DNA of 64,000 bases, taken from NCBI GenBank assembly GCA_964426135.1, contig CAYRPN010000018.1, positions 65 to 64,064 of the forward strand. Reading direction: 5' to 3'. The position numbers were made by a program, and so were the translations under genes. Below are positions 4,099-61,987 of the stretch, piece by piece. Below the pieces are notes generated by a model. It saw nothing but the letters and a program-made list of their open reading frames with translations. It was not told the DNA's origin and made no database searches. Within the stretch, counting starts at the first letter, position 1. The number at the start of each line of letters is the position of its first letter. Origin of the DNA: an uncultured Phycisphaeraceae bacterium. GTDB taxonomy: Bacteria > Planctomycetota > Phycisphaerae > Phycisphaerales > Phycisphaeraceae.

Positions 4099-7000
4099 TC
4101 ACTTCGCCGCCGTCTTCTCCGCCGCCGGCACTTCGAACTTCGCGATCTCCGCGCCGCTGACGCCGTTCCACACGTGGACGATGCTGGCCTGTCCGCCGGC
4201 GACGACGATTTTGCCGTCGGGCGTGGCGGCTGCGCAGTAGATGGCGTCGGTGGTGCCGGTGTAGGTGCGGACGCTGCCGCCGTTTTCCTTGATCTGCTTC
4301 ACCTGTCCGTCGCCGGCACAGACCACGGCGCTGTCGCCGACGCCGATGAAGCGGATGGCGGTGACTTCCTTGGGCGAGCCGTCGGTGGTTTTTTTCTGGC
4401 CGCCGGCGACGAAGTCCCAGGTCTTCAGTTTGCCGTCGGCGCCGGCGCTCATGAGCGTGCGGCCGTCCGCCATCCAGCTCACGCCCAACACGTGATGCGT
4501 GTGGCCTTCGAAGGACATGACGAATTTTCCGTCGGCGACGGTCCAGGTCTTGACGAATTTGTCGGCGGCGCAGGTGGCGAGGTGTTTGTCGTCGTAGGAG
4601 AACTCCAGGCCGAAGACGGTGTCGCTGTGCGGGTCTTTCAGTTCGCGGATCAGCGCGCCGTCGGCGGGGTTCCAGATTTTCACTTCGCCGCTGCGCGACG
4701 GGTTGCCGCCGCCGGTGGCGAGCATTTTTCCATCGGTGCTGAAGGCGAGGGAAATGACGCGGTCGACCAGCGGCGAATCGCTTTCGCCTGAGCCGATGAA
4801 GCGCTCCAGCGTCCAGTCCCCGCCGCTGCCCCATGCGATCGCCTTCTGATCGGCGGAGCCTGACACGATCGTGCCATTAGGCAGCATGGCGACGGCGAAC
4901 ACGGCGCCGCCGTGGCCCTTGACGACATCGATGGCGGCGCCGTCGTCGGCGCTCCACGTCTGCACCACGCCGGCCTCGTCGCCGGTGACGATGGTCTTGC
5001 CGTCGGCGGAGAACGCGATGGCGACGATGGGCTTGCCCGGTTCCGTCGCGGCCTTCTTCGCGGCGGCGGAATCCTCCGCGGCTTTCTTCTGCGCAGCCTC
5101 GGCGGCCTTCGCTTCGGCCTGCGCCGCCGCCAGCGCTTCCTCGGATTTTTTCTGGCTGTTCGTCGCGGCGATCACGGCGTTGGCGCTGCTGTCCTTGTTG
5201 CGCTGCGCCGCTTCGAAGGCGTTCTTCGCGTCCGTGTATGGCTTCTCCTGCGCCTTCACCGCGGTGTCGGCGGTGTTCTTCTTGTTCGTCAGGTCGGTGA
5301 CCAGCTTGTCCGCGTCCGCCTTGGCTTTTTCGGCGGCGGCGCGCTTGGCGTCGATGTCGGTGAATGCCTTGGCCGCGGCGGCCTTGGCGGCGGCCAGCGG
5401 CTCGAGCGCCTTGGCGGCTGCCGCCGCGTCGTCCTGCGCTTTCTTCAGCGCCGCCTGCCGCTTGGCCTGTTCGTCCTGCGCCGCCTTCAATGCGTCGGCG
5501 GCGGCTTTGTCCTTGGCGTCTTTGTCGGCGGCCTTCTTCGCCGCGGCGACCTTGTCGTCCTGCGATTTCACTTTCGCATCCGCGGCCTTTACCGCTTCGT
5601 CAGCCGTCGCTTTCGCCTTCTCCGCGGCCTTGGCGGCGGTGTCGGCTTCGGTCATCTTCGCCTGCGCCGCCTTCGCTTCCGCTTTCAACGGCTCCAGCGC
5701 GGCGGCGGCCGCCTTCTGATCCTCCGTCGCCTTGGCGAGCAGCGGCGTCACTTCCGCCAGCGGCTTGTCCGCCGCGTCCTTGGCCGCCTGTGCCTTCTTG
5801 AAAGCATCGTCCTTCACCTTCAACTCGTCTTCCGCTTTCTTCGCGGTTTCCTTGCTCTTGTTCACCGCTTCGCCTTCGCTCTTCTTGCGGGCTTCGGTGT
5901 CGGTGATCAGCTTCTTGTAGTACGCCACGTGCTGGTCCTGCAGCGCGGCGATGCGGGCTTTCTCCTCGACCAGGAAGGTGCCTTGCGGGCTGCCTTTCAG
6001 TTCGCCGGCGGCGCTGCCGCTGTCGGCTTTCCAGAGCTTGGCGCCGCCAGCGCCGCAGGAGGCGAAGCGCGTGCCATCGGGCCGCACCGCCACGCCGGTG
6101 ACCGGTCCGCCGTGCGCGATGCTCTTGATCGCCTTGCCTTTTTCGCCGTCGATATGGGCGAGGTTGCCGTCCTGGCTTCCGGTGAGGAACTGCGTGTCGG
6201 CGGCGGGCACGGTCGCCATCGCGGTGACGGGGCCTTTGTGCTGCGCGATTTCGAAGAGAGCTTTCGCGGGGGCGGCCGGCAGTTTCGCGTCGGCGGCGTT
6301 CCAGATGCGCACCTGGCCGTCGTTATGGCCCGTGGCGATTTTCGCGTCCTTCGCCAGCCAGGTCACCGCGGAAACTTCGCCCGGCGTGTCGAGCTGCGCC
6401 GCCTGCTTGCCGTCGGCGATGGTCCAGACGCGCACGCTCTTGTCGGCTGAGCCGGTGAGCAGCTTCGTGCTGTCGGCTGAGAATTTCAGATCCGTCACCG
6501 CGCCGCCGTGCCCGGCGAGATCCTTGGCGGGCTTGCCGTCGGCGGCGTTCCAGAGCTTGACGGTGTTGCCCGGGGCGACGGTGGCGATCCACTTGCCGTC
6601 CGCGCTGGCGGCGAGGTCGGTCACGGGCAGTCCCGCGCCCATCTCGGCGAGCTTGGCCGCGCCCGGCCGGCGCCAGAGCTTCACCGTGCGATAGCCGCCG
6701 GAAGCGAGCAGCATGCCGTCGGGGCTGAACGCCAGCGACTGCACGAGATCGCGCTCCGCCACGCCCGGCTGTTTCGCGAAGCCGCTCTTGAGCAGGTTCG
6801 GATCGGTGAGTCGCGTGACCAGCGTCTTGCTCGGAATGTGGTAGATGAAGATCTGGTTGGCACGCGCGGCGGCGAGGAACTGGCCATCCTGCGTGACGGC
6901 GATCGCGTAGATCGGATTCAGCCCGGCCGGCAGCGGTTGCCAGACAATCGGAATCTGCTGGATGACGACCTGGCCCTTGGCGCCCTGGTCGATCCAGAGT

Positions 7001-8455: not shown

Positions 8456-8530
8456 TCTGAGATGAGAGCAGAGGCGTGGGTGCGCTGCAAGAGGAGCGGG
8501 TGAGTAGGTGAAGTGCTGACGGTGAAGGGA

Positions 8531-8650
8531 TTGCAAATTGAAAATTGAAAAATGCAAATTGAAAATTGTTAGGACAATGAGTGCCAATCGGGCAGTGGTC
8601 CCGGCAATCCGCAATTTTCAATTTTCACTTTTCACTTTTCAATTTTCAAT
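8531..8650. repeat. Foldback with AT-rich tandem-repeat arms (TTGAAAA/TTGCAAA units vs complement)
   Basis: The left arm at 8531..8568 and the right arm at 8612..8650 are imperfect reverse complements built from 7-8-nt repeats. Confidence 0.75.
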
Positions 8651-8674
8651 ATTCCGAATCTCGACTCATCCCGC

Positions 8675-10716: not shown

Positions 10717-10734
10717 GGAGTGCTCGGGGGAAAA

Positions 10735-11010
10735 GGGTTTAGGGTTTAGGGTTTAGGGTCTAGGGTGTAGGGATTGCGGGATTCGCTTGCGCGCATGGCC
10801 TGTCGGTGTCAGACCAAACAAGTCAAAATAGCGAATGCAAAATGCAAAATGCAAAAGTCAGAGCAAAGCCACAACGCAACGTTGTCTGACTTTTGCATTT
10901 TGCATTTTGCATTGACTATTCCGACTTCCTCCGGATCGCCACGCTCAGGACAAAAGGCGACGATCAGAAAACCCCGCACCCTACACCCTACACCCTAAAC
11001 CCTAAACCCT
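10735..11010. repeat. Nested foldback: outer (TTTAGGG)n-like arms, inner (AATGCAA)n hairpin
   Basis: The outer G-strand at 10735..10772 (GGGTTTAGGGTTTAGGGTTTAGGGTCTAGGGTGTAGGG) pairs with the C-strand at 10977..11010. The inner hairpin arms are at 10833..10863 and 10886..10914. Confidence 0.85.
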
Positions 11011-12137
11011 CAGAACCTCACCCGCACGCCGAACGTCAGCGCCCCGAACGCATGCGTGCCGTTCTGGCCTTCGAACTGTCGGCTGAGCACGGTCTGCGAA
11101 TAGGTCGCGTGCAGGTCGAAGCAATCCGCCCGCCACGCGATGCCGATGCCCGCCTGCGCTTCGCCGACGAAAGTTTCCGCCTCGGCGCCGCGGCTTTTTT
11201 CGAAGTTGCTGCCTTCGATGAACATGTCGTGCTCGACGATCCGCCCACCGATCCGCGCGAAGCCATACACCGTCAGCGCCCCTGGCTGGCCAAAACCATT
11301 GGCGGTCAGGTCGGCGATGCGGCTGGGGCCGAAGTCGTCCGGCAAGTTCCAGCCGACGCGCACCAGCGCACCGCCTTCCAGATGCCGCTGCGCCAAACCC
11401 AGCGCCAGGCCCACCTGCGGAATCACCTGGAATTGCAGGGGATTGGCAGCACTTTCGCCGGCGGGCGTCGCCATTGGCGCAGGCGCGACGAAGCCCTGGC
11501 CGGTCCATGTCGGATACGCGGGCTTGTCGCCGAACTTCCATTTCTTGCGGAAGTAAAACTGGATCACCGGCTCGTCGCCCAACTGCGTGTCCCAGCCCTG
11601 CGGGTCCGGCTCATCGAAAAAATCATGCACGCCCGCCTGGATGTCGTCGGCGTACGACGATGGGCCGACCACGCCGGCGTTCACCTCGACATGGTCGAGC
11701 GTGTCCGCATTGGATCGCTCCCAGAAACCAGCGAGATACAGGTAGCCGGAGTAGGGATGATCGTTCAGCGGCGGATTGGCCTGCGTGATGTCGTTGGCGG
11801 TGTTGATGTGATGGCCCAGCGCGATGCCGAAGGCGCGGTGGCCGGCGGTGAAATCATCGAACGCCGGCAGGAGGTCGATCAGCTGCGCCGGCTCGGTGTC
11901 GCGCAGCGTGAAGCTGGCGACGAAGCCGTTGGTGTAGTAGCGATCGGTGTTGTGGTTGGGCTTGAGCACGGTGCCGTCGTTTTCCCAGTGCAGCGTGAGC
12001 AGCCAGAGCGTGTTCTCCGGCTTCTTCGATGCGACAGCCGGCGCGACATCCTCGGCCGCGGCGACGCCTGAAAGCAGCAACGTGACCATTCCGATTTGTT
12101 TCAGCACAGCAGCACCTCCAGATTCCCGGCGAAGCAT
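11010..12137 (-). CDS. Outer-membrane LpxR/DUF2219-like protein (putative lipid A deacylase family)
   Basis: Signal peptide. WENDGTV..NTDRYYTNGF resembles the END..DR.YT.G N-terminal signature I associate with DUF2219. The C-terminus ..FGVRVRF ends in Phe, as beta-barrel OMPs do. An alternative ATG lies at 12089. Confidence 0.5.
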   Translation of the reverse strand: MLRRESGGAAVLKQIGMVTLLLSGVAAAEDVAPAVASKKPENTLWLLTLHWENDGTVLKPNHNTDRYYTNGFVASFTLRDTEPAQLIDLLPAFDDFTAGHRAFGIALGHHINTANDITQANPPLNDHPYSGYLYLAGFWERSNADTLDHVEVNAGVVGPSSYADDIQAGVHDFFDEPDPQGWDTQLGDEPVIQFYFRKKWKFGDKPAYPTWTGQGFVAPAPMATPAGESAANPLQFQVIPQVGLALGLAQRHLEGGALVRVGWNLPDDFGPSRIADLTANGFGQPGALTVYGFARIGGRIVEHDMFIEGSNFEKSRGAEAETFVGEAQAGIGIAWRADCFDLHATYSQTVLSRQFEGQNGTHAFGALTFGVRVRF

Positions 12138-13616: not shown

Positions 13617-14019
13617 GCGGGGAAGGAGGCAAGGGGAGGGGAAGGGGGAAGCGGGAAGGAGGTAGAGAAGGTAGAGGAGGTAGAGAATACTCGAACGTGC
13701 GCGGTCGCCGTTTAGCGACGCGGCTTGCCGCGCTTCGGCGCGAGCGAATCAAGCAAATAGTAGACGTTTTCGACGGCAGACATCCGTCGATAGAATTGAA
13801 TCCAGGTGTTCTTCGCACCGATGGCGATGCGCCGATCACGAAGCGCGGCCGGCGAATCGCCGATGTGGGACGACTCGCTCGCCGCCGCAGGCGCGGCAAG
13901 CCGCGTCGCTAAACGGCGAGCCCGCGCATCCGAATATTCTTTAACTTCTTCTCCTCCTTTACCTCCTCTGCCTCCTCTACCTTCTCTACCTCCTCTACCT
14001 CCTTCTCTCCCCTTCCCCC
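13617..14019. repeat. 403-bp foldback / MITE-like element with ~95-bp terminal inverted repeats
   Basis: The left end is (GGTAGAGAA/GGAGG)n..TCGCCGTTTAGCGACGCGGCTTGCCGCG. The right end is its reverse complement, CGCGGCAAGCCGCGTCGCTAAACGGCGA..(CCTCCTCTACC)n. The element fills the divergent amidohydrolase/moaC spacer exactly. Confidence 0.8.
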
Positions 14020-14478
14020 ATGCCCGACCTCACCCATCTCGATTCGCAAGGCCAAGCCCACATGGTGGATGTGGGGCACAAGCCGGTCGTTCGCCGCACC
14101 GCCGTCGCCGCCGGTGATTTCGTGGCGGCCAAGGCGACGTTGGATCGGCTGCTCGCCGGCAATCTGCCCAAGGGTGAAGCGCTGGCGGTCGCGCGCATCG
14201 CAGGCATCGCCGCGGCCAAGCGAACCGACGAACTGATCCCGCTGTGTCATTCGCTGCCGCTGGATCAGGTGTCGGTGGATTTCGCACGTGTTGCCGACGA
14301 TCGCCTGCGCGTCACCGCCAGCGCATCGGTCAGCGCGAAGACCGGCGTGGAAATGGAAGCGCTCACCGCGGTGACGATCGCGTGCCTGACGCTCTACGAC
14401 ATGACGAAGGCGATCGACAAGGCGCTGCGCATCGAGGGCGTGCATCTGGTGAAAAAGACAAAAGAGAATGCCGTTTAG
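14020..14478 (+). CDS. moaC: Cyclic pyranopterin monophosphate synthase MoaC
   Basis: ATG start. ..LTHLDSQGQAHMVDVGHKP.., ..LIPLCHSLPL.., ..TGVEMEALTAV..LTLYDM.. are MoaC hallmarks. Confidence 0.9.
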   Translation: MPDLTHLDSQGQAHMVDVGHKPVVRRTAVAAGDFVAAKATLDRLLAGNLPKGEALAVARIAGIAAAKRTDELIPLCHSLPLDQVSVDFARVADDRLRVTASASVSAKTGVEMEALTAVTIACLTLYDMTKAIDKALRIEGVHLVKKTKENAV

Positions 14479-15372: not shown

Positions 15373-15484
15373 CGAGGGACCGAGGGACCGAGGGACGAAG
15401 GGACGGAGGGACGGAGGGACGGAGGGACGGAGGGACGGAGGGACCAAGGGACGGAGGGACCAAGGGACCAAGGGACGGAGGGAC
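15373..15484. repeat. Tandem 9-nt repeat (GGGACNRAG) x ~12
   Basis: Direct reading. It abuts the recX start codon, so the mRNA-sense strand is C/U-rich. Confidence 0.9.
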
Positions 15485-15486
15485 AA

Positions 15487-15665
15487 GGCAAATGTCTAGT
15501 GTTTAGTGTCTAGTGTCGAATATCTAATCGCGAAGCAATCAAACGTCGCGTGATCGCCATTTGGGATTCGCCATTCAACATTCGATACTCGACATTCGAC
15601 ATTCGACATTTGCCTTTTGGTGGGCAGTGCCCACCCTACACCCTACACCCTAAACCCTAAACCCT
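15487..15665. repeat. Foldback (GGCAAATGTC..tandem TAGTGT/GAATGT units..GACATTTGCC) plus REP-A unit plus (CCCTAAA)n-like tract
   Basis: The foldback arms end at 15487 and 15614. REP-A sits at 15619..15639 and CCCTACACCCTACACCCTAAACCCTAAACCC at 15631..15665. Confidence 0.75.
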
Positions 15666-18657: not shown

Positions 18658-19074
18658 GCCTGTGATCTCCATTGATGTTCGAGTAAACGAGCCGACGCAT
18701 CATAGGGACTTGCGCGGGTGAAATTCAACTGGTATTTGTGAATTGCTACCGGACGAATCAATCCGAAGAAGTGCCGGTGTTGGCTTGCTCATTCAGCGGC
18801 TGATGATCGTCCCAGGTAGCCCAGGCCGCCGTGCGCCGAAGCGCCGGATCGAACATTCCCGGTTCATCGTGTCGCGCCTTTCACAGAGCCCTCAGCCCAG
18901 GCCCCAGCAAGTTTTCAGGCACGCAGCGCACGAGTCGCGCGGCTCGGCGGGCATCGTGGTTCGGGTGGAGACGGGCAACGTGATTTCGCCCCGCGGACCT
19001 CGCGCTGGGTCATTCTCAAACGCCACCGCCCGTGTGGCGATGGCCCCGGAACGGACGGTTCTGAAAAAGAAAAA

Positions 19075-19149
19075 TGCCCCCAAGGGGATTTGAACCCCTG
19101 TTTCTAGGATGAGAACCTAGCGTCCTAGGCCAGGCTAGACGATGGGGGC
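19075..19149 (-). tRNA. tRNA-Glu (anticodon CUC)
   Basis: The minus strand reads GCCCCCATCGTCTAGCCTGGCCTAGGACGCTAGGTTCTCATCCTAGAAACAGGGGTTCAAATCCCCTTGGGGGCA. It shows a 7-bp acceptor stem, anticodon stem CTAGG/CCTAG with loop TTCTCAT, and a T-loop GGTTCAAATCC. CCA is not encoded. Confidence 0.85.
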
Positions 19150-19163
19150 ATCGTTCGGGGGAA

Positions 19164-19457: not shown

Positions 19458-22400
19458 TCACGCCAGACCAACCGCCGCGGCGTCGCGGTCGCTGAGCATG
19501 CCTCCGGTCTCGCCTTCGCCGCGATGCTTCACGGTGCCGTCGCGCTTCCAGCTTCGCTCGCATCGCGGCTCGTTGCGAAGATCGATCACCTCGGCGACGC
19601 CGAAGGTCGCTTCGCTGTGGCCGTGACCCTCCGGGGCGCTGGGCTTCATGGCGACAAACTCGAATCGGCTGATGCCGCAGAGATCCGCCAGGTCCACCCG
19701 GCTGAACGCGTCGAGGCACGCATCCGCGCCGGTCACCCGCAGGCCCATGTCCAGCGGGTTGTCCACGCCCTGCGTCTGCCGCGCGGTTTCCAGCGATTTC
19801 ATCCAGGCCGCGCGACCGTCCATCAGGAGCGGCCAAAGCTCGAACACCGGCACGATCATCGGCTGCGGCAACAGCTCGAGATGCACGCTCTGCGCCGCGG
19901 TCACGTTCTTAAGCTCGCGCCCGTGCAGCGACGCCCACGCCTCCTCCGCCGTGTAAGGCAGGATCGGCGCGAACAGGCGAATCACCGCGCTGGCGATTTC
20001 GTACATCGCCGTCTGCGTGCGACGGCGGCGCGGGCTGTCGGGCTTGTCGCAATACAGGCGATCCTTCGTCGCCGCCAGATAAATCGCCGACAGCGTCTCA
20101 TTGCAGAAATGGAAGATGGATTCGCTGACGACGCCGTACTGGAAATGCTCGTAAGCGTGCCGGCACTTGCGGATCAGTTCGTTGAGCTGCTCCATCGCCC
20201 AGGCGTCGATGCTGGTGGCGTCCTCCAAAGCCCAGGCATGGCCATGCCTGGGCTTTTCAAAATCGCCCAGATTGCTCAGCAAGAACCGCATCGTGTTGCG
20301 AACCTTGCGATACTCTTCGCCCGCCAGGTCGAAGTAGCTCTTGTCCACCTTGATGTCGTTGTCCGTGTTCAGCGAGCACACCCACCAGCGACACACATCC
20401 GCGCCGTAGTCCTTGAGCAGCACATCGACTTCCAGCGTGTTGCCCAGCGACTTGCTCATCTTCTTGCCGTCTTTGTCCACCATGAACCCATGCGTGAGCA
20501 CCGTCTTGAACGGCGACCGCCCGGTCACGCCCAGGGCCGGCAGGAGCGAGCACTGGAACCAGCCGCGATGCTGGTCGGAGCCTTCGAGGTAGAGATCGGT
20601 GACGGGGCGCTGCTCTTTGACGGGATCGTGTGCCAGGCCGCGCTGCACCATGACAGCGTTCCAGGATGAGCCGGACTCGAACCAGACATCGAAGATGTCG
20701 GAAGCTTTGCGGAGCGCGGCAAAGCCCAGGCATGGCAATGCCTGGGCTTTGCCTTCGCAGCGCAACCACTGCGGCGCCGCGGGATCATTCGCCGAGTCGT
20801 ACTCCGCAAGCAGGTCTTTCGGCTCCAGTTTGAACCATGCGTCCGATCCATGCTTGCGCACGACATTGGCGACGGCCTGCACGCTGGCTTGCGTGAGCAA
20901 GAACTCGCCGGGTTTTTCGCCAAAGAACGCGGGGATCGGCAGGCCCCAGGCGCGCTGACGCGAGAGGCACCAGTCCGGCCGCGATTCGAGCATGCCGCGC
21001 ATCCGGTTGCGGCCCCATTCGGGGAGGAACTGCACGTCCTTTTCCGTTTCGTGCAGGGCGAGTTGGCGAAGGGTGCGCGATGTTGCGGCGTCCGCGCGGG
21101 GCAAAGCCCCGCGGCTAAACGCGGCAGGGGCGAACGGGGAATCCACGCCCACAAACCACTGCTCCGTCGCCCGGAAAATCACCGGCGTCTTGCTGCGCCA
21201 GTCGTGCGGATAACTGTGCGTGAACTTGTGATCCAGGAGCAGATGCCCGCTGGCGCGCAGCTTCTCCAACACGATGCCGTTGGCGTCCCACACGCTCTTG
21301 CCGCGCAGCCAGGTGGGCGCGGTGTCGTCGAAGGTGCCGTCGGCGAGCACGGGGCAGTAGATCGGCAGCTTTTCGCGCAGGCCGGTCTGGTAGTCCTCCG
21401 TGCCGTGGCCCGGCGCGGTGTGCACGAGGCCGCAGCCGTCTTCGATCGTGACATAGTCGGCGGCCATCACGGTGTAGAGCGCGTCGAGTGTGGCGCCGCC
21501 AGGGCCGGTCCCCTGGCCCTTGGCCCCTGGCCCCTGGCCCTCTTCCACAAACGGATGCACGTACCGCATGCCCACGAGGTTGAAGCCCTCCGTCACGCCG
21601 ACGATCTGCATCGCGTCGTCCTTCATCGACGCGGCAAGCTTGCCCGCCAGTTCCTCCGCGACGACCGCAAGCCTGCCCTTGATCCGCACCAGCGCGTAGC
21701 GATACGACGGATGCACCGCCACGCCCATGTTGGCCGGCAGCGTCCAGGGCGTCGTCGTCCAGATCATGAAATGCACCGGCTCGCTTCGCAGCGGCGAATC
21801 ATCGCCGACGAACTCATCGAACAAACCATCGCGCGACTGCGGCGCGACCTCGAACAGCACGTACACGCTCGTGTCCTCGCGGTCCTCGTATTCCAGTTCC
21901 GCCTCCGCCAGCGCGGTCTGATTCGCGATCGACCAGTGCACTGGTTTGAGCGCGCGATAAACGAGACCTTTGCCCACGAGGTCGGCGAAAACCTCCAGCG
22001 TCGCCGCCTCAAACTCCGGCAACATGGTCAGGTACGGATGCTCGTAATCCGCCAGCGTCAGCAGCCGCTGCATCTGGCCCATCTGCAGCTTGATGAATTT
22101 TTCCGCGTACTTGCGGCAGTCCCGGCGGACGGACATGGCAAAAGGAAGGGCCGAGGGAACAGGGCCGAGGGCCGAGGGGTCGGAGGATTTCGGATTTTGG
22201 ACTTCGGATTGCGGATCGGGCTTGGTGCCTTGCCCCTCGGTCGCTGGGTCGCTGGATCCCTCGGTCCCTTTCCCTTGGCCCTCGGCCCTCGGCCCTTGGC
22301 CCTTTTCTTGCCTTTCCTGCATCACCTTGTGCTCGATGGGCAGGCCGTGACAGTCCCAGCCGGGGATGTAGGGCACGTCGTAGCCGAGCATGGTCTTGCT

Positions 22401-22673
22401 GCGCACGACGAGATCTTTCAGGACCTTGTTGAGCAGGTGGCCCAGGTGAATCGAGCCGTTGGCGTAGGGCGGGCCGTCGTGGAAGACGAAGCGCTTGCTC
22501 GGATCGTCCGTCCCGCGGGCGGCGCGGATGGCTTCGTACAGCTTCTGCTCCTGCCATCGCTTCAGCGCGGCCGGCTCGTTCTGCACGAGATTCGCCTTCA
22601 TGCCGAAGCTGGTCTTGGGCAGGTTCAGCGTGTCCTTGAACGATTTCTTTTTGGGAGCGGTGGTGTCGGACAT
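19458..22673 (-). CDS. ileS: Isoleucine--tRNA ligase, carrying three low-complexity in-frame insertions
   Basis: ATG start. HIGH-type motif (..PYANGSIHLGHLLNK..), GWDCHGLPIE, KMSKSLGN and a C-terminal Zn-like region are present. Total length is 1071 aa including the inserts at 22140..22313, 21486..21545 and 21075..21137. Confidence 0.95.
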   Translation of the reverse strand: MSDTTAPKKKSFKDTLNLPKTSFGMKANLVQNEPAALKRWQEQKLYEAIRAARGTDDPSKRFVFHDGPPYANGSIHLGHLLNKVLKDLVVRSKTMLGYDVPYIPGWDCHGLPIEHKVMQERQEKGQGPRAEGQGKGTEGSSDPATEGQGTKPDPQSEVQNPKSSDPSALGPVPSALPFAMSVRRDCRKYAEKFIKLQMGQMQRLLTLADYEHPYLTMLPEFEAATLEVFADLVGKGLVYRALKPVHWSIANQTALAEAELEYEDREDTSVYVLFEVAPQSRDGLFDEFVGDDSPLRSEPVHFMIWTTTPWTLPANMGVAVHPSYRYALVRIKGRLAVVAEELAGKLAASMKDDAMQIVGVTEGFNLVGMRYVHPFVEEGQGPGAKGQGTGPGGATLDALYTVMAADYVTIEDGCGLVHTAPGHGTEDYQTGLREKLPIYCPVLADGTFDDTAPTWLRGKSVWDANGIVLEKLRASGHLLLDHKFTHSYPHDWRSKTPVIFRATEQWFVGVDSPFAPAAFSRGALPRADAATSRTLRQLALHETEKDVQFLPEWGRNRMRGMLESRPDWCLSRQRAWGLPIPAFFGEKPGEFLLTQASVQAVANVVRKHGSDAWFKLEPKDLLAEYDSANDPAAPQWLRCEGKAQALPCLGFAALRKASDIFDVWFESGSSWNAVMVQRGLAHDPVKEQRPVTDLYLEGSDQHRGWFQCSLLPALGVTGRSPFKTVLTHGFMVDKDGKKMSKSLGNTLEVDVLLKDYGADVCRWWVCSLNTDNDIKVDKSYFDLAGEEYRKVRNTMRFLLSNLGDFEKPRHGHAWALEDATSIDAWAMEQLNELIRKCRHAYEHFQYGVVSESIFHFCNETLSAIYLAATKDRLYCDKPDSPRRRRTQTAMYEIASAVIRLFAPILPYTAEEAWASLHGRELKNVTAAQSVHLELLPQPMIVPVFELWPLLMDGRAAWMKSLETARQTQGVDNPLDMGLRVTGADACLDAFSRVDLADLCGISRFEFVAMKPSAPEGHGHSEATFGVAEVIDLRNEPRCERSWKRDGTVKHRGEGETGGMLSDRDAAAVGLA

Positions 22674-22950
22674 GGCGAGAAGTCAGGAGTGAGGAGTGAG
22701 AATCGAGGAGTGAGGCGTAGTCGCCGGCGAGCCGGGCCGTGTCGGCCCGACGAATTTCGTTTGCAACTTCCAAAACGCAACAAGCCCCGCCGCGTGGGCA
22801 GGGCTTGCGAAGGATCGAACCACCATCGCGGAACCCTGCGGCTAGGGCGTGCTGATGATAATGCGAATGGCGGCGGGTTGTTGGGGAAGGCGCGGGAGCA
22901 TTGGTCGAAAGTGTAGGCGCCGTGGAGCATGTTCGCGAGTGCAGACACGG
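22674..22950 (-). promoter_or_regulatory. ileS 5' leader (~275 nt) with internal terminator-like hairpin; possible attenuator/T-box-like element
   Basis: The leader lies between the upstream gene's own terminator (22951..22982) and the ileS ATG. It contains ATTATCATCAGC, GATGGTGGTTCG and a hairpin followed by a U-rich tail. Confidence 0.4.
22768..22807 (-). terminator. Terminator-like hairpin inside the ileS leader
   Basis: On the minus strand, CAAGCCCTGCCCACGCGGCGGGGCTTG is followed by TTGCGTTTTGG, ~105 nt upstream of the ileS start codon. Confidence 0.45.
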
Positions 22951-22982
22951 AAAAAAGAAACCTCTCCCGAAGGAGAGGTTTC
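22951..22982 (-). terminator. Intrinsic terminator downstream of the PEP-CTERM gene
   Basis: On the minus strand, GAAACCTCTCC-TTCG-GGAGAGGTTTC is followed by TTTTTT. Confidence 0.75.
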
Positions 22983-23008
22983 GGTCTGCACTGGATTGTT
23001 GAATCGGA

Positions 23009-29886: not shown

Positions 29887-29950
29887 CGTCTCTCCGTCTC
29901 TCCGTCTCTTCGTCTCTTCGTCTCTTCACCCCTCCGTCCCTTCTTCCACT
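29887..29950. repeat. Tandem 8-nt repeat (CGTCTCTY)n immediately 3' of sdhB
   Basis: Direct reading. It is roughly complementary to the GA-rich array 5' of sdhB (30738..30850). Confidence 0.85.
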
Positions 29951-30737: not shown

Positions 30738-30850
30738 GGAAGAGGACAGAGATCAGAGGTCAGAAGACAGAGGTCAGAGGTCAGAAGACAGAAGACAGAA
30801 GTCAGGAGTGAGGAGTGAGGAGTGAGGAGGTAGGAGGTAGGAGTGAGGAA
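30738..30850. repeat. Tandem GA-rich repeats (GAAGACA / GAGGTCA / GGAGTGA units) immediately 5' of sdhB
   Basis: Direct reading. It contains a 23-nt string (30797..30819) identical to one in the ileS leader (22678..22700). Confidence 0.85.
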
Positions 30851-33637: not shown

Positions 33638-33759
33638 ATTGAACCACAAAGACACAGAGACACGAAGAATAAGCAGAAAGGGAGAATGACGAAACGGACG
33701 TTGTGGCGAGTCGAACTGATTCGCTGTTTTCTTTGTGCCTTTGTGTCTTTGTGGTTCAA
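33638..33759. repeat. 122-bp foldback filling the sdhC-sdhA spacer
   Basis: ATTGAACCACAAAGACACAGAGACAC... at the left end pairs with ...GTGCCTTTGTGTCTTTGTGGTTCAAT at the right end (~26-nt inverted ends). Confidence 0.8.
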
Positions 33760-34597: not shown

Positions 34598-34640
34598 GGG
34601 GGCCTCGTGGGGATGGCGAAGGATGAAGTCGGGGGTTGTG

Positions 34641-35031
34641 GAATGCCGAATGTCGAATGTCGAATGTCTAATGTCGAATGTCTAATGAATGACGAATGCC
34701 CCAATGTCGAATGACGAATGACGGAATATTCGACGAACGTCCATTCTTGTATCGCAACTCATCGATGGCAGCGGAAACGCCACCGACCTCAACTCCGTCA
34801 TTTGGCATTCGACATTGACCCATTCGTCATTTATCAGGGAACTCTGAATATCCCACGAGGATCGCGCGCCAAGGCGCAAAGCACGCAAAGAGGGAGGCGT
34901 TTCTTTGCGAGCTTTGCGCCTTGGCGCGAGACTGCTTTGGTTTTTCAGAAGTCCCATTAGACATTCCGTCATTCGTCATTGGGTTTTCGTCATTCGTCAT
35001 TCATTCGTCATTTTGATTTCGTCATTTGTCA
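34641..35031. repeat. Compound foldback: (GAATGTC/GAATGAC)n arms vs (GTCATTC)n arms with a central 65-nt hairpin
   Basis: The left array is at 34641..34725. Right arrays are at 34795..34830 and 34955..35031. The central palindrome at 34864..34928 reads CGCGCCAAGGCGCAAAGC..GCTTTGCGCCTTGGCGCG. Confidence 0.8.
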
Positions 35032-35042
35032 TTGCGCCGCGA

Positions 35043-35744: not shown

Positions 35745-35835
35745 GTTCAATCTCTTCGTCTCTCCTTCTCTCCGTCTCTCCTTCTCTCCGTCTCTCCTTC
35801 TCTCCGTCTCTCCGTCTCTTCCTCCTTCCCTTCCC
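35745..35835. repeat. Tandem CU-rich repeats (CTCTCCGT/CTCCTT units) in the hisI leader
   Basis: Direct reading. It is followed by TATAAT (35841..35846) and the hisI ATG at 35870. Confidence 0.85.
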
Positions 35836-44834: not shown

Positions 44835-48784
<3,950 letters not shown>

Positions 48785-48788
<4 letters not shown>

Positions 48789-52724: not shown

Positions 52725-52738
52725 GGTGAAGCGATGAG

Positions 52739-52869
52739 CCGTTAGCCGTTAGCCGACGTCGGAAACTTCCAGACAAACCTGTATCGTCGGCCACAAAAGC
52801 TAACGGCTTATGGCTAACGGCTGTCGGCTTTGTTTCGTAAACACAACCCCCGGCTTCCGCCGGGGGCTG
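52739..52869. repeat. Foldback (GCCGTTAGCCGTTAGCC ... GCTAACGGCTTATGGCTAACGGC) plus a REP-C-like palindrome (AACCCCCGGCTTCCGCCGGGGGCT)
   Basis: Direct reading, between the tetrahaem and cNMP/Fe-S genes. Confidence 0.8.
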
Positions 52870-53892: not shown

Positions 53893-53916
53893 GGTGCGAC
53901 CTCGAAAAGGGGTGAT

Positions 53917-54078
53917 GAGTTCTGAGTTCTCGTTTCTGAGTTCTGAGTTCTGGGTGAGTTCTGCGTGAGTTCTGGGCTCTGGGGTTTGGGTAGGGTGGGT
54001 TGAGGCTTTGCGAAACCCACCACGCGGTCACTTTTGGTTCGCCAATGGTGGGTTTCGCCGAGCCTCAACCCACCCTAC
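53917..54078. repeat. Heptamer array (GAGTTCT x ~8) plus REP-A-like palindrome pair
   Basis: The array is at 53917..53972. GTAGGGTGGGTTGAGGCTTTGCGAAACCCACC (53990..54021) pairs with GGTGGGTTTCGCCGAGCCTCAACCCACCCTAC (54047..54078). Confidence 0.8.
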
Positions 54079-55396: not shown

Positions 55397-55500
55397 TTCA
55401 CAACTGGGCAGTTGCGCCGATCTTAACTCACGACCCGCGCCGATGAAAGGCGAATCGATCCGGTCCTTCAATGTCGGCGTTTTCGCCGAGCAAATTCCGT

Positions 55501-55618
55501 CAGCCGTCAGCCGTCAGCCGTCAGTTCCACAGGCTAGCGGTCGGGCCGAGTCCGCGAGGCCCACCCGTGTCTTGAGCGCTGAAGCAGGTGGGCCTCGCGG
55601 ACTCGGCCCGACCGCTAA
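55501..55618. repeat. Heptamer array (CAGCCGT x3) plus 32-nt palindrome pair
   Basis: CTAGCGGTCGGGCCGAGTCCGCGAGGCCCACC (55534..55565) pairs with GGTGGGCCTCGCGGACTCGGCCCGACCGCTAA (55587..55618). Confidence 0.8.
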
Positions 55619-61289: not shown

Positions 61290-61462
61290 GAAATTGAGTG
61301 AACGAGATGGGATCGAAAGAGTGGAACGGCCCCTTCCATCCCATTCCCGCCTGCTTTTTCTCCCCAATCCCTTCTGCCTTCTCCCTTCTGCCTTCTCTCC
61401 CGCCAGAAATGTCCCTTTTCCGCCTTCGCCGGCGGCGACCAAGGCGAACCGAGTCAACGACC

Positions 61463-61987
61463 ATGAGCATGTCCCGGAAAATCCGCCACGAAGTCAAGGC
61501 TGTGCTCATCGCCACCGCGTTCTTCGCTGCCTGGTTCGGCACGCTCATGTTGCTGAAACGCCTGATCCTCGCGGAATACCAGATCGAGTTCCGCGGCTTG
61601 GCCTCGGCCCTGCTGGGTGCCCTGGTCGTCGCCAAGGTGGTGCTGATCCTTGAGCACGTGCCGCTGGGCGGGTGGGTGCGCCGGCAGCCCGCGTGGGTCG
61701 ATCTGATCGCCCGCACCGCGCTCTACGCCGCCGGCGCTTTCGTCGCGATGCTCATCGAAAAAGCCTTTCACGGCAGACACGAATACGGCGGCTTCGGCGA
61801 ATCGCTGGTCAAGGTCTTCCAGCACACGGATATTCACCACGTCTGGGCGGCGGCGATCGGCGTCACGGGAGGCCTGCTCCTGTTCAACATCGCCTCCTTG
61901 CTGAGAAAGCGCGTCGGCGGCGAAGCCCTGGGGCGAGCGTTCCTCACGCCGATGGAACCTTCGCCCCCATCGCAATCCCACCAATGA
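61463..61987 (+). CDS. Hypothetical four-TM membrane protein
   Basis: Trimmed to the ATG at 61463 (MSMSRKIRHEVKAVLIATAFFAAWFG..). No family recognised. Confidence 0.5.
   Translation: MSMSRKIRHEVKAVLIATAFFAAWFGTLMLLKRLILAEYQIEFRGLASALLGALVVAKVVLILEHVPLGGWVRRQPAWVDLIARTALYAAGAFVAMLIEKAFHGRHEYGGFGESLVKVFQHTDIHHVWAAAIGVTGGLLLFNIASLLRKRVGGEALGRAFLTPMEPSPPSQSHQ

Follow-up and report, generated by a model that had tools for sequence, protein, structure and literature searches.

Heptanucleotide repeats are the commonest long simple repeats in bacteria, and to our knowledge almost nothing is known about their origin or role. The STRR heptamers of cyanobacteria, which Mazel (in 1990) and Vioque (in 1997) are said to have described, reportedly belong to a few unit families genome-wide and occur also inside the RNase P RNA gene (rnpB). 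Here we describe a complete foldback of heptamer arrays that is positioned in frame inside ileS, the gene of the essential isoleucyl-tRNA synthetase (the protein is called IleS), in DNA from an uncultured Phycisphaeraceae bacterium (Planctomycetota; contig CAYRPN010000018.1 of assembly GCA_964426135.1). The stretch that was analysed, called the window, has a length of 64,000 nucleotides, and positions are counted from its first letter. The foldback is probably a translated and tolerated passenger built of heptamer repeats, located in a disordered surface loop of a functional type-1 enzyme, rather than a miniature inverted-repeat transposable element (MITE).

The arrays of the heptamer GGGAATC in Xanthomonas campestris and Xanthomonas axonopodis include 70–75 convergent pairs per genome that are able to form a stem-loop, with 7–11% intragenic (Rehm et al. 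2015, PMC4692102), and about 32% of the GGGGA(C/T)T arrays of Nostoc PCC 7120 are intragenic (PMC4692102). The heptamers of both are dispersed, mainly in spacers between co-oriented genes, their G3 tracts are capable of forming G-quadruplexes, and the array length varies between relatives while the position is kept (PMC4692102). The work of Mrazek 2007, as summarised in PMC4679880 and PMC4692102, proposes heptamers as the preferred slippage unit of bacterial replication. Geobacter metallireducens contains elements of four GGGACCG units at 49 sites, both between and within genes (Aklujkar et al. 2009, PMC2700814). The Rickettsia palindromic elements (RPEs; Ogata et al. 2000, 2002) are described in the review PMC10969869 as palindromes of ~100–150 bp that are present in frame in housekeeping genes unrelated to each other, where their position was considered compatible with the fold, and are translated as an extra peptide. 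The REP, BIME, and REPIN sequences are presented in PMC3116915 and PMC3733652 as short intergenic hairpin palindromes or inverted pairs, located in spacers between co-directional genes.

The foldback in ileS

The ileS gene (19458–22673, minus strand) is intact in the list of open reading frames (ORFs) and encodes a type-1 isoleucyl-tRNA synthetase (IleRS) of 1071 residues. The protein contains the motifs HLGH (residues 76–79) and KMSKS (residues 738–742), the editing-domain motifs, and the Pfam families PF00133 and PF08264, and matches the PDB sequence 8c9e with an E value of 3e-187. The structure predicted by AlphaFold2 from 80 sequences has a mean pLDDT of 87.2 and a pTM of 0.86. Foldseek aligned the model to the type-1 IleRS structures 8c9f and 8c9e with a target-normalised TM score of 0.87, and to type-2 structures with scores of 0.67–0.68. 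All invariant columns of the alignment of 80 related sequences, including those of HLGH and KMSKS, are kept. The HIGH and KMSKS motifs, the CP1 editing domain, and the fold match place the protein among the type-1 bacterial IleRS.

The foldback is 175 nt long (22138–22312, minus strand, with the limits taken from the predicted pairing) and makes up most of the sequence encoding residues 121–181 (nt 22131–22313). Along the coding strand, it starts with a G-rich 5′ arm (22272–22304), composed of the units AAGGGCC (twice) and GAGGGCC (twice) and a terminal AAGGG. Next comes a degenerate stretch (AAAGGGACCGAGGGATCCAGCGACCCAGCGACCGAGGGG), in which a degenerate continuation of the arm and (CAGCGAC)-like units (22234–22271; GAAAGGGACCGAGGGATCCAGCGACCCAGCGACCGAGGGG) are homologous to an insert from another lineage that is described below. 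The centre is formed by an unpaired array of AATCCGA (22185–22216; GGATTTC on the plus strand), which is read as PDPQSEVQNPKSS and belongs to the AAATCCG family found at another IleS loop of other lineages and in many metagenome contigs. The C-rich 3′ arm (22146–22178) consists of the units CCCTCGG, CCCTCGG, CCCTGTT, and CCCTCGG and a terminal CCCTT, and is read as DPSALGPVPSALP. The two arms have 33 nt each, are 93 nt apart, and are 85% complementary. Tandem Repeats Finder detected the three head-to-tail arrays with period 7, at 22147–22178 (AGGGCCG, 4.6 copies), 22185–22216 (GGATTTC, 4.6 copies), and 22272–22304 (CCCTTGG, 4.7 copies). The arms are thus complementary, convergent arrays that are close enough to form a stem-loop. 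An earlier note, made from the DNA sequence, had described a complete tandem-repeat foldback at this place, and the arrays, arms, and pairing bear this out. The repeat unit had to be corrected: it is a heptamer and not a 9-nt sequence, and the proposed 'GGGCCGAGG' corresponds to 1.3 units.

The foldback is real and exceeds what is expected by chance. Its RNA has a predicted minimum free energy of -89.3 kcal/mol (z -4.6), and none of 200 shuffled sequences was as stable; folded as DNA, the same segment has a z of -3.3. The arm pattern occurs six times in the window, compared with 0.30 expected, and all six occurrences are inside ileS. In 200 codon-shuffled versions of ileS, no inverted repeat reached 28 of 33 matching positions, and the maximum was 27. 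A chimeric fold-back produced during assembly or amplification could be suspected, since the sequence comes from a metagenome-assembled genome (MAG), and short-read assemblies are prone to errors at palindromes and simple repeats. Such an artefact is extremely improbable, because the identical 1071-residue protein was called on four contigs under NCBI and ENA, and the imperfect, interrupted arms are unlike those of chimeric fold-backs. The reading frame is also exact, and analogous structures occupy the same loops in independent MAGs.

The insert adds 49 codons relative to the nearest relatives, and the foldback has no stop codon in any of its six frames. The distance between the GWDCHGLP and YxxPYLT motifs is 97 residues, compared with 48 or 57 in all but six of the 80 related loci. 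The sequence of 8c9e (IleRS1 of P. megaterium) aligns to residues 11–120 and 182–1048, and the 61 residues 121–181 replace 12. Together with the preserved invariant residues, this upholds the claim that the element is in frame and open within an intact ileS. The insert has a GC content of 66%. The GC contents of codon positions 1, 2, and 3 in the foldback are 0.67, 0.59, and 0.69, compared with 0.64, 0.43, and 0.85 in the remaining ileS, and the value for the third position is below that of every other 61-codon window of the gene. The segment, which is stop-free and lacks the codon-position pattern, therefore resembles DNA that is non-coding, or shaped by arrays, and open by chance. The 147 added nucleotides equal 21 heptamers as well as 49 codons; we attach no meaning to this coincidence, as the insert is not strictly heptameric in its centre.

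In the predicted structure of IleS, the only regions with a pLDDT below 50 are residues 1–3, 129–173, 386–396, and 525–527. The predicted disordered segment 129–173 (22155–22289, minus strand) connects helix 111–123 to helix 176–203 in the N-terminal half of the catalytic fold. The frame and the stop statistics suggest that the segment is part of the translated protein. Its hairpin is strong and reminiscent of bypass or processing signals, as would be expected if the segment were missing from the mature protein owing to removal from the transcript or ribosome bypass; a decaying gene copy would be another way to the same result. These possibilities are highly improbable. The frame is kept and in-frame stops are absent in every coding example (sites 1 and 2 of the window gene, the loci L001, L002, L082, L083, and L085, and others), which removal would not require. 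No catalytic or invariant residue has been lost, and the model of the fold is a confident one.

The second of these sites, site 2, is a further in-frame array in the editing domain (21497–21547, minus strand; residues ~377–395, EEGQGPGAKGQGTGPGG). It contains 4.4 head-to-tail copies of GGGCCAG/GGGCCAA, the same unit family as the arms of the foldback at site 1, followed by a complement of a single unit (GGCCCTGG). The region overlaps the predicted disordered residues 386–396.

The insertion site in other IleS lineages

In the protein collection that was searched, the closest relatives of the window IleS are at most 68% identical to it, and the five closest ones (64–68%) lack the insert. In a neighbour-joining tree, the window IleS groups with the sequences P0002–P0007, all of which have a short 48-residue loop (ELGDKARGMVPLQ) at the insert site, and the insert is therefore derived in the window lineage. 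Site 1 is a hot spot nonetheless, with expanded loops in 13 of the 80 IleS sequences; site 2 could be located in 79 sequences and is expanded in 19 of these. The loop sequences at the insert sites turn over completely between relatives.

Two of the expanded site-1 sequences, L082 and L083, were examined at the DNA level. L082 (P0083, GCA_002900785.1) contains a foldback at the position and in the orientation found in the window, with arms of period 8 made of 4.6 copies of AGGGGCCA and the complement. The left arm of the window foldback aligns to the arm of L082, which differs by one extra G per unit. The insert of L083 (P0017, GCA_028281215.1) is devoid of arms and aligns to the core of the window insert over 88 nt with ~75% identity and a z of about 15. 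The alignment spans the (AATCCGA)n array and stays significant when limited to the part free of it (0 of 1000 shuffles). Since only 0.46–0.57 of the third codon positions are identical between the two ileS genes, the inserts are more alike than neutral sites. The alignment of IleS sequences confirmed the insertion site, whereas the idea of a simple insertion private to one lineage did not hold, because the inserts in L082 and L083 are homologous to it at the DNA level. The earlier note had taken homologous segments without repeats, in orthologues throughout the phylum, as a finding that would speak against an inserted element, and this applies in part, given the period-8 arms of L082 and the shared core of L083.

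The sequence that follows the insert resembles different relatives than the rest of the gene does. The 37 codons located 3′ of the insert have DNA identities of 0.78–0.81 to L082 and to IleS genes of the '57-class', compared with 0.72 to L001 and 0.68 to L002, and for the first 15 of these codons the values are 0.76–0.82 and 0.58, respectively. In the remaining ileS outside the insert, L001 and L002 are closer (0.71–0.72 versus 0.63). When the protein was compared, segment by segment, with the nearest clade and with the clade that bears the insert, mosaicism was only weakly indicated; the DNA of the 37 adjacent codons gave the clearer signal. The insert and the start of the next helix may therefore be a loop module that was exchanged by recombination between Phycisphaeraceae lineages, as the resemblance of these few codons suggests.

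Three further loops of the enzyme carry heptamer or octamer arrays or foldbacks, with different units, in related lineages. Site 2, located between the HPF and ADYVT motifs of the editing domain, contains a perfect (GAGTTCC)4/(GGAACTC)4 foldback in L002 (-66.1 kcal/mol, z -9.5) and a (TCCGGTG)/(CCCGACA) foldback in L001. Further downstream, in the Phycisphaeraceae ileS of L056, ~850 nt of coding sequence (4420–5275) are spanned by the mutually inverted octamer arrays CGGAGAGA, CTCCGTCG, and GAGACGGA. At site 4, in front of the DIFDVW motif, about five AAATCCG units are read as KSEIRNPKSEIRK or a close variant of it in at least five lineages (P0005/L002, P0013, P0017/L083 at 5720–5760, P0051, and P0090). 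Variants are present in P0067, P0070, P0100, and P0118, and other lineages have (AAACTCG)n or (AAACCAG)n there. At the left boundary of site 1, the host codons of relatives are AAG GCC CGT GGC, AAA GCC AAG GGT, or AAG GGC, which are one indel away from AAGGGCCAAGGG.

The predicted mRNA hairpin is stable, and the mRNA strand contains seven GGG tracts with 4-nt spacing in the 5′ arm and the imperfect units that follow it, which corresponds to the G3N1-7 spacing of G-quadruplex motifs. G-rich heptamer arrays form G-quadruplexes in vitro and are distributed non-randomly near ORFs in Xanthomonas and Nostoc (PMC4692102). The foldback might accordingly adjust translation, pausing, or mRNA decay by forming a hairpin or G-quadruplex in the mRNA, for example as an RNase III site, or serve as a useful flexible appendage of the protein, and the core shared by the window and L083 is more conserved than neutral sites. 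We nevertheless consider such a function improbable. Neither the five closest relatives nor most other members of the family have the insert, and the loops at its site are subject to the complete turnover described above. Moreover, the insert has no codon adaptation, its peptide is predicted to be disordered, and a search of the whole window against Rfam 15 at the gathering score gave nothing at the foldback. Of the earlier suggestion that the enzyme 'tolerates, or uses' the element, tolerance agrees with the variable loop that is predicted to be disordered, whereas use is unsupported, given the absence from the closest relatives.

Heptamer arrays in the window and in metagenomes

The window has a GC content of 63%, is most similar to MAGs of Phycisphaeraceae, and contains about 27 arrays with a period of 7 or 8, an excess of period-7 arrays that is mainly intergenic. 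Gene positions were taken, where available, from the ENA calls on the overlapping contig L081 (window coordinate = 32674 minus L081 coordinate). At least eight pairs of heptamer, octamer, or nonamer arrays are inverted: 8530/8612, 10734/10977 with the nested 10834/10891, 13660/13953, 33645/33731, 34637/34962, 52737/52799, and the ileS pair. All of them except the ileS pair are intergenic, and the arrays outside ileS in the 64 kb are all located between genes or at the edges of ORFs. The units are of more than 15 kinds, of which only CACCCTA/AGGGTKT recurs, at two loci, so that the window has no single unit or small set of units that dominates. Each foldback has units of its own, and what the foldbacks share is architecture and not sequence. 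The ileS foldback, composed of inverted heptamer arrays with another array in the centre, is built like at least eight intergenic ones. The kinship with intergenic foldbacks that had been claimed thus applies to the build; the ileS foldback is not a copy of any of them, its arm unit is restricted to ileS within the window, and it is GC-rich and open.

Entire spacers fold into one giant hairpin each, with pairing also outside the repeats. The 296-nt spacer 10725–11020, between two minus-strand genes, forms one hairpin with a predicted RNA energy of -176.7 kcal/mol (z -16.4), in which the outer arms (AGGGTTT)5.6 and (CACCCTA)4.9 enclose the inner arms (AATGCAA)3.3 and (TTTTGCA)3.3. AGGGTTT is the plant-type telomere unit. 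The ileS stem, with its z of -4.6, is much weaker. Foldbacks in coding sequence have GC contents of 55–71% and four to six of six frames open, whereas intergenic ones have 34–60% GC and zero or one open frame if they are at least 125 nt long, or two to four if they are shorter. As a 7-nt unit cycles through the three phases, a coding array and its complementary arm have to be stop-free in every phase. This applies to all five arrays in ileS, to six of 17 intergenic arrays, and to 69% of random heptamers of the composition of the window. A unit containing a stop codon in some phase places stops in all three frames of its array; 11 of the 17 intergenic arrays have such a unit, compared with ~31% expected, a difference of uncertain significance since the arms of pairs are not independent.

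The majority of the intergenic spacers carry tandem arrays of period 7, 8, or 9, many of them as inverted pairs. Arrays are located in the spacers 8530–8654, 13619–14003, 15374–15665, 29887–29943, 30741–30849, 33645–33753, 34637–35033, 35751–35834, 52737–52829, 53916–53976, and 55497–55524. Examples are (GAGGGACG) with 13.9 copies at 15374–15484, and (TGTCGAA) with 12 copies and (CATTCGT) with 10.6 copies at 34637–35033. The foldback 13619–14003 lies between divergent genes, which shows that foldbacks are not confined to co-directional spacers; moaC is on the plus strand at 14020–14478. On the transcribed strand, the purine- or G-rich arm precedes its partner, as judged by eye, in ileS, 8530/8612, 10734/10977, 13619/14003, 33645/33731, and 34637/34962, as well as in L001, L002, and L082. 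Because nearly all genes of the window are on the minus strand, the order of the arms cannot separate the direction of transcription from that of replication.

The surroundings of ileS contain other repeats and signals. An array of 5.6 copies of ACTCCTC (mRNA strand; 22677–22715, minus strand) ends 4 nt 5′ of the ileS start codon; no inverted partner of this array was found in the 5′ leader. The array, which is outside the insert, resembles an anti-Shine-Dalgarno sequence. Upstream of ileS, after a PEP-CTERM-type gene, a classical stem and T-run terminator (AAACCTCTCCTTCGGGAGAGGTTTCTTTTTT) was recognised by eye at ~22955–22990, which suggests that the foldbacks are not simply the terminators of this genome. 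A tRNA-Glu gene with the anticodon CTC (19074–19150, minus strand; 19075–19149 according to Rfam) is located ~300 nt downstream of ileS and is the sole Rfam or ARAGORN match in the window. The segment 17924–18151, upstream of the tRNA and ileS region, consists of 3.1 copies of a 59-nt unit followed by 2.1 copies of a 34-nt unit. An ORF of 1317 residues (44835–48788) contains repeats at 45621–46693 with units of 93 nt and 57 nt and a long (CGGCGT) run of 28.8 copies. A (CCTTCTG) array of 3.9 copies at 61370–61396 begins 72 nt inside the longest ORF at that place (61298–61987, plus strand) and is either coding or 5′ of the true start.

The unit of the central ileS array is widespread. A scan of JGI metagenomes for (AAATCCG)3 found at least 120 contigs with GC contents of 0.32–0.70. 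Arrays of period 7 outnumber those of period 6 by 325 to 37 in the listed AAATCCG contigs. Among the matches listed, 56 of 131 arrays are within long open frames, and no conserved flanks surround the 125 arrays that were compared, with a GGGTGGGTGGA-like string preceding ~8 of them. AAATCCG is stop-free in six phases and reads KSEIRNP in the sense and FRISDFG in the antisense direction. In-frame arrays were confirmed by Pfam in the valyl-tRNA synthetase ValRS, the leucyl-tRNA synthetase LeuRS (two arrays), PNPase, a class-V aminotransferase (NifS-like), and an ATP-dependent DNA ligase. A complete (AAATCCG)4/(CGGATTT)4 foldback is located between the NTPase and finger domains of a DnaE-type polymerase (L085, 2291–2389). 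In-frame heptamer arrays and foldbacks in essential enzymes are thus not peculiar to this ileS. The contigs in question are L085, L094, L147, L169, L174, L180, and L198, and a CarB-like protein, assigned by a sequence motif alone, has one as well. In L094, L095, L131, and L139, some of the AAATCCG arrays form the loop of another palindrome, which recurs in several contigs and has arms that translate to GNEALTE ... QSLLTSA. Literature searches for AAATCCG array strings gave no relevant paper, and those for Planctomycetes together with heptanucleotide repeats gave nothing specific.

Several of these observations would fit a mobile palindromic element, similar to a MITE, an RPE, or another self-spreading 'micro-element', that inserts perhaps site-specifically and is translated as an in-frame fusion. 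Inserts that are homologous at the DNA level occupy an identical site in three IleS lineages that have reached saturation at neutral positions, while the nearest relatives of the window IleS lack the insert. One unit family is used twice per gene (sites 1 and 2 in the window, sites 1 and 4 in L083), (AAATCCG)n is found across very diverse contigs and proteins, and RPEs provide a precedent for palindromes that encode protein (PMC10969869). The ileS insert also lies in frame and free of stops at a fold-compatible site of a housekeeping gene. We consider this explanation unlikely. The earlier note had proposed a search for the same arms elsewhere, and this returned neither the arms nor the whole unit a second time, be it outside ileS in the window or among 203 loci, so that a MITE-like family cannot be defined. 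The arrays are the only terminal inverted repeats, and a target-site duplication is missing: the 175-nt unit is not bordered by direct repeats, and the outermost pairing overlaps codons of the host type (QEKG ... LPFA). The insert peptide had no match in a collection of 5.8 billion proteins, in which a search with the insert and its flanks hit solely with the conserved C-terminal third of the query, in three fragments, with no donor or sister insert. The AAATCCG arrays have no conserved flanks in the listed matches, and the periods of 7 and 8 in the two arm-bearing lineages are unexpected for a copied element. The occurrence of the arm unit at none of the other loci searched, and the separate units of each window foldback, argue against copy-and-paste.

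Origin of the foldback and comparison with known systems

We therefore favour the explanation that the ileS foldback is a tolerated heptamer-repeat passenger, which implies no role for the enzyme. The arrays would have grown by replication slippage, in line with the 7-nt preference proposed in the literature. The architecture of the foldback suggests that the inverted arm originated when the copying switched strands and used the other strand as a template, and the spacers that are palindromic from end to end point to the same process. The left arm could have been seeded by the host codons for K-G or K-A-R-G (AAG GGC or AAG GCC CGT GGC), and a seed encoded by the host would explain why similar arms with periods 7 and 8 are found at one site in two lineages, for which a copied mobile element would not account. 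Selection would have acted as a filter, such that the survivors in coding sequence keep the frame and have a unit and a complement that are stop-free in all three phases. It is this filter that would make the coding examples GC-rich and open and leave the intergenic ones unaffected. Recombination with another Phycisphaeraceae IleS probably introduced or preserved the loop module, which consists of the insert and the ~15–37 codons that follow.

Several points weigh against the passenger explanation. Translation of the segment is deduced from the frame and the absence of stops, and slippage and strand switching are a presumed generating mechanism. No relative with an identity above 70% was found in the 5.8 billion proteins, and therefore no intermediate states or copy-number polymorphisms are visible. 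Local neutral growth alone would not lead to the homology with the L083 core in genes whose neutral sites are saturated; this requires either lateral spread or a constraint on the DNA or RNA. The site-4 array replaces a loop of similar length and does not lengthen it. Finally, the presence of AAATCCG in contigs with 32–70% GC and unrelated flanks hints at a sequence-specific cause beyond slippage.

Such a cause is the core of a broader proposal, that heptamer arrays and foldbacks are a 'mobile microsatellite', which propagates itself in a sequence-specific manner by templated patch synthesis, recombination, or a dedicated enzyme. We regard this as distinctly unlikely. If it were true, the spacers would be colonised by these arrays, and the stop-free (AAATCCG)n and (GGGCCRA)n would have settled in loops of IleRS, ValRS, LeuRS, DnaE, PNPase, and DNA ligase in bacteria of very different GC content, moving from lineage to lineage as loop modules. 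The ileS foldback would then be a full-length member, and L082 and L083 would be diverged or partial copies.

As a tolerated passenger, the ileS foldback, together with its relatives, provides a system for studying how foldbacks arise, be it by slippage, strand switching, or recombination. It illustrates the filter that coding DNA imposes, i.e. the preservation of the frame and freedom from stops in six phases, and is a gauge of the amount of structured nucleic acid and disordered peptide that is tolerable for an aminoacyl-tRNA synthetase. The arrays also affect annotation, because they give conserved proteins low-complexity insertions and lead to spurious ORFs in spacers. In essential genes they are a mutational hazard, as the frame shifts when their length changes by one or two units. 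The ileS foldback is one case of a wider, barely studied tendency of heptamer repeats to occupy the loops of essential proteins.

Relative to the cited reports, and within the literature searched, the phylum of the host, the variety of units in a single genome, and the nested hairpins that extend over whole spacers are new. New as well are the complete inverted pair that is apparently translated in an essential synthetase and the occurrence of period-7 and period-8 versions and a homologous core at one site in three lineages. The arrays of Xanthomonas and Nostoc are the closest counterparts, and in those genomes one unit family dominates, whereas nearly every locus of the window has its own unit. 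The in-frame inverted pair in an essential enzyme and the nested multi-array hairpins of spacers are not described in PMC4692102, and the host of the window belongs to a different phylum, Planctomycetota. The unit of Geobacter metallireducens resembles the GGGACCG/GGGCCGA strings of the window, and ileS likewise contains two arrays of one unit family. However, the Geobacter elements are a single conserved family of about four units that was identified by BLAST and proposed to encode a regulatory RNA, with no foldback reported (PMC2700814), unlike the arrays in ileS.

RPEs, as reviewed in PMC10969869, are present in multiple copies with a conserved consensus and peptide, whereas the ileS insert is a single copy in the DNA searched, with simple tandem arms, the period of which differs between lineages. 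The REP and REPIN sequences, as presented in PMC3116915 and PMC3733652, are high-copy, conserved families tied to the RAYT transposase. The window foldbacks share their architecture only; they have no common sequence that would make up a high-copy family of 20–40 nt palindromes, the search for RAYT being confined to the window.

The cyanobacterial STRR heptamers are reportedly similar to the ileS foldback in that their arrays are tolerated in an essential gene at a structurally permissive place. The place in rnpB is said to be an RNA helix, to which no filter of frame and stops applies, whereas that in ileS is the loop of a putatively translated protein. Within the DNA searched, the ileS foldback lacks the multi-copy character of MITEs, RPEs, and REPs, and by its architecture it belongs to the class of heptamer-repeat arrays.

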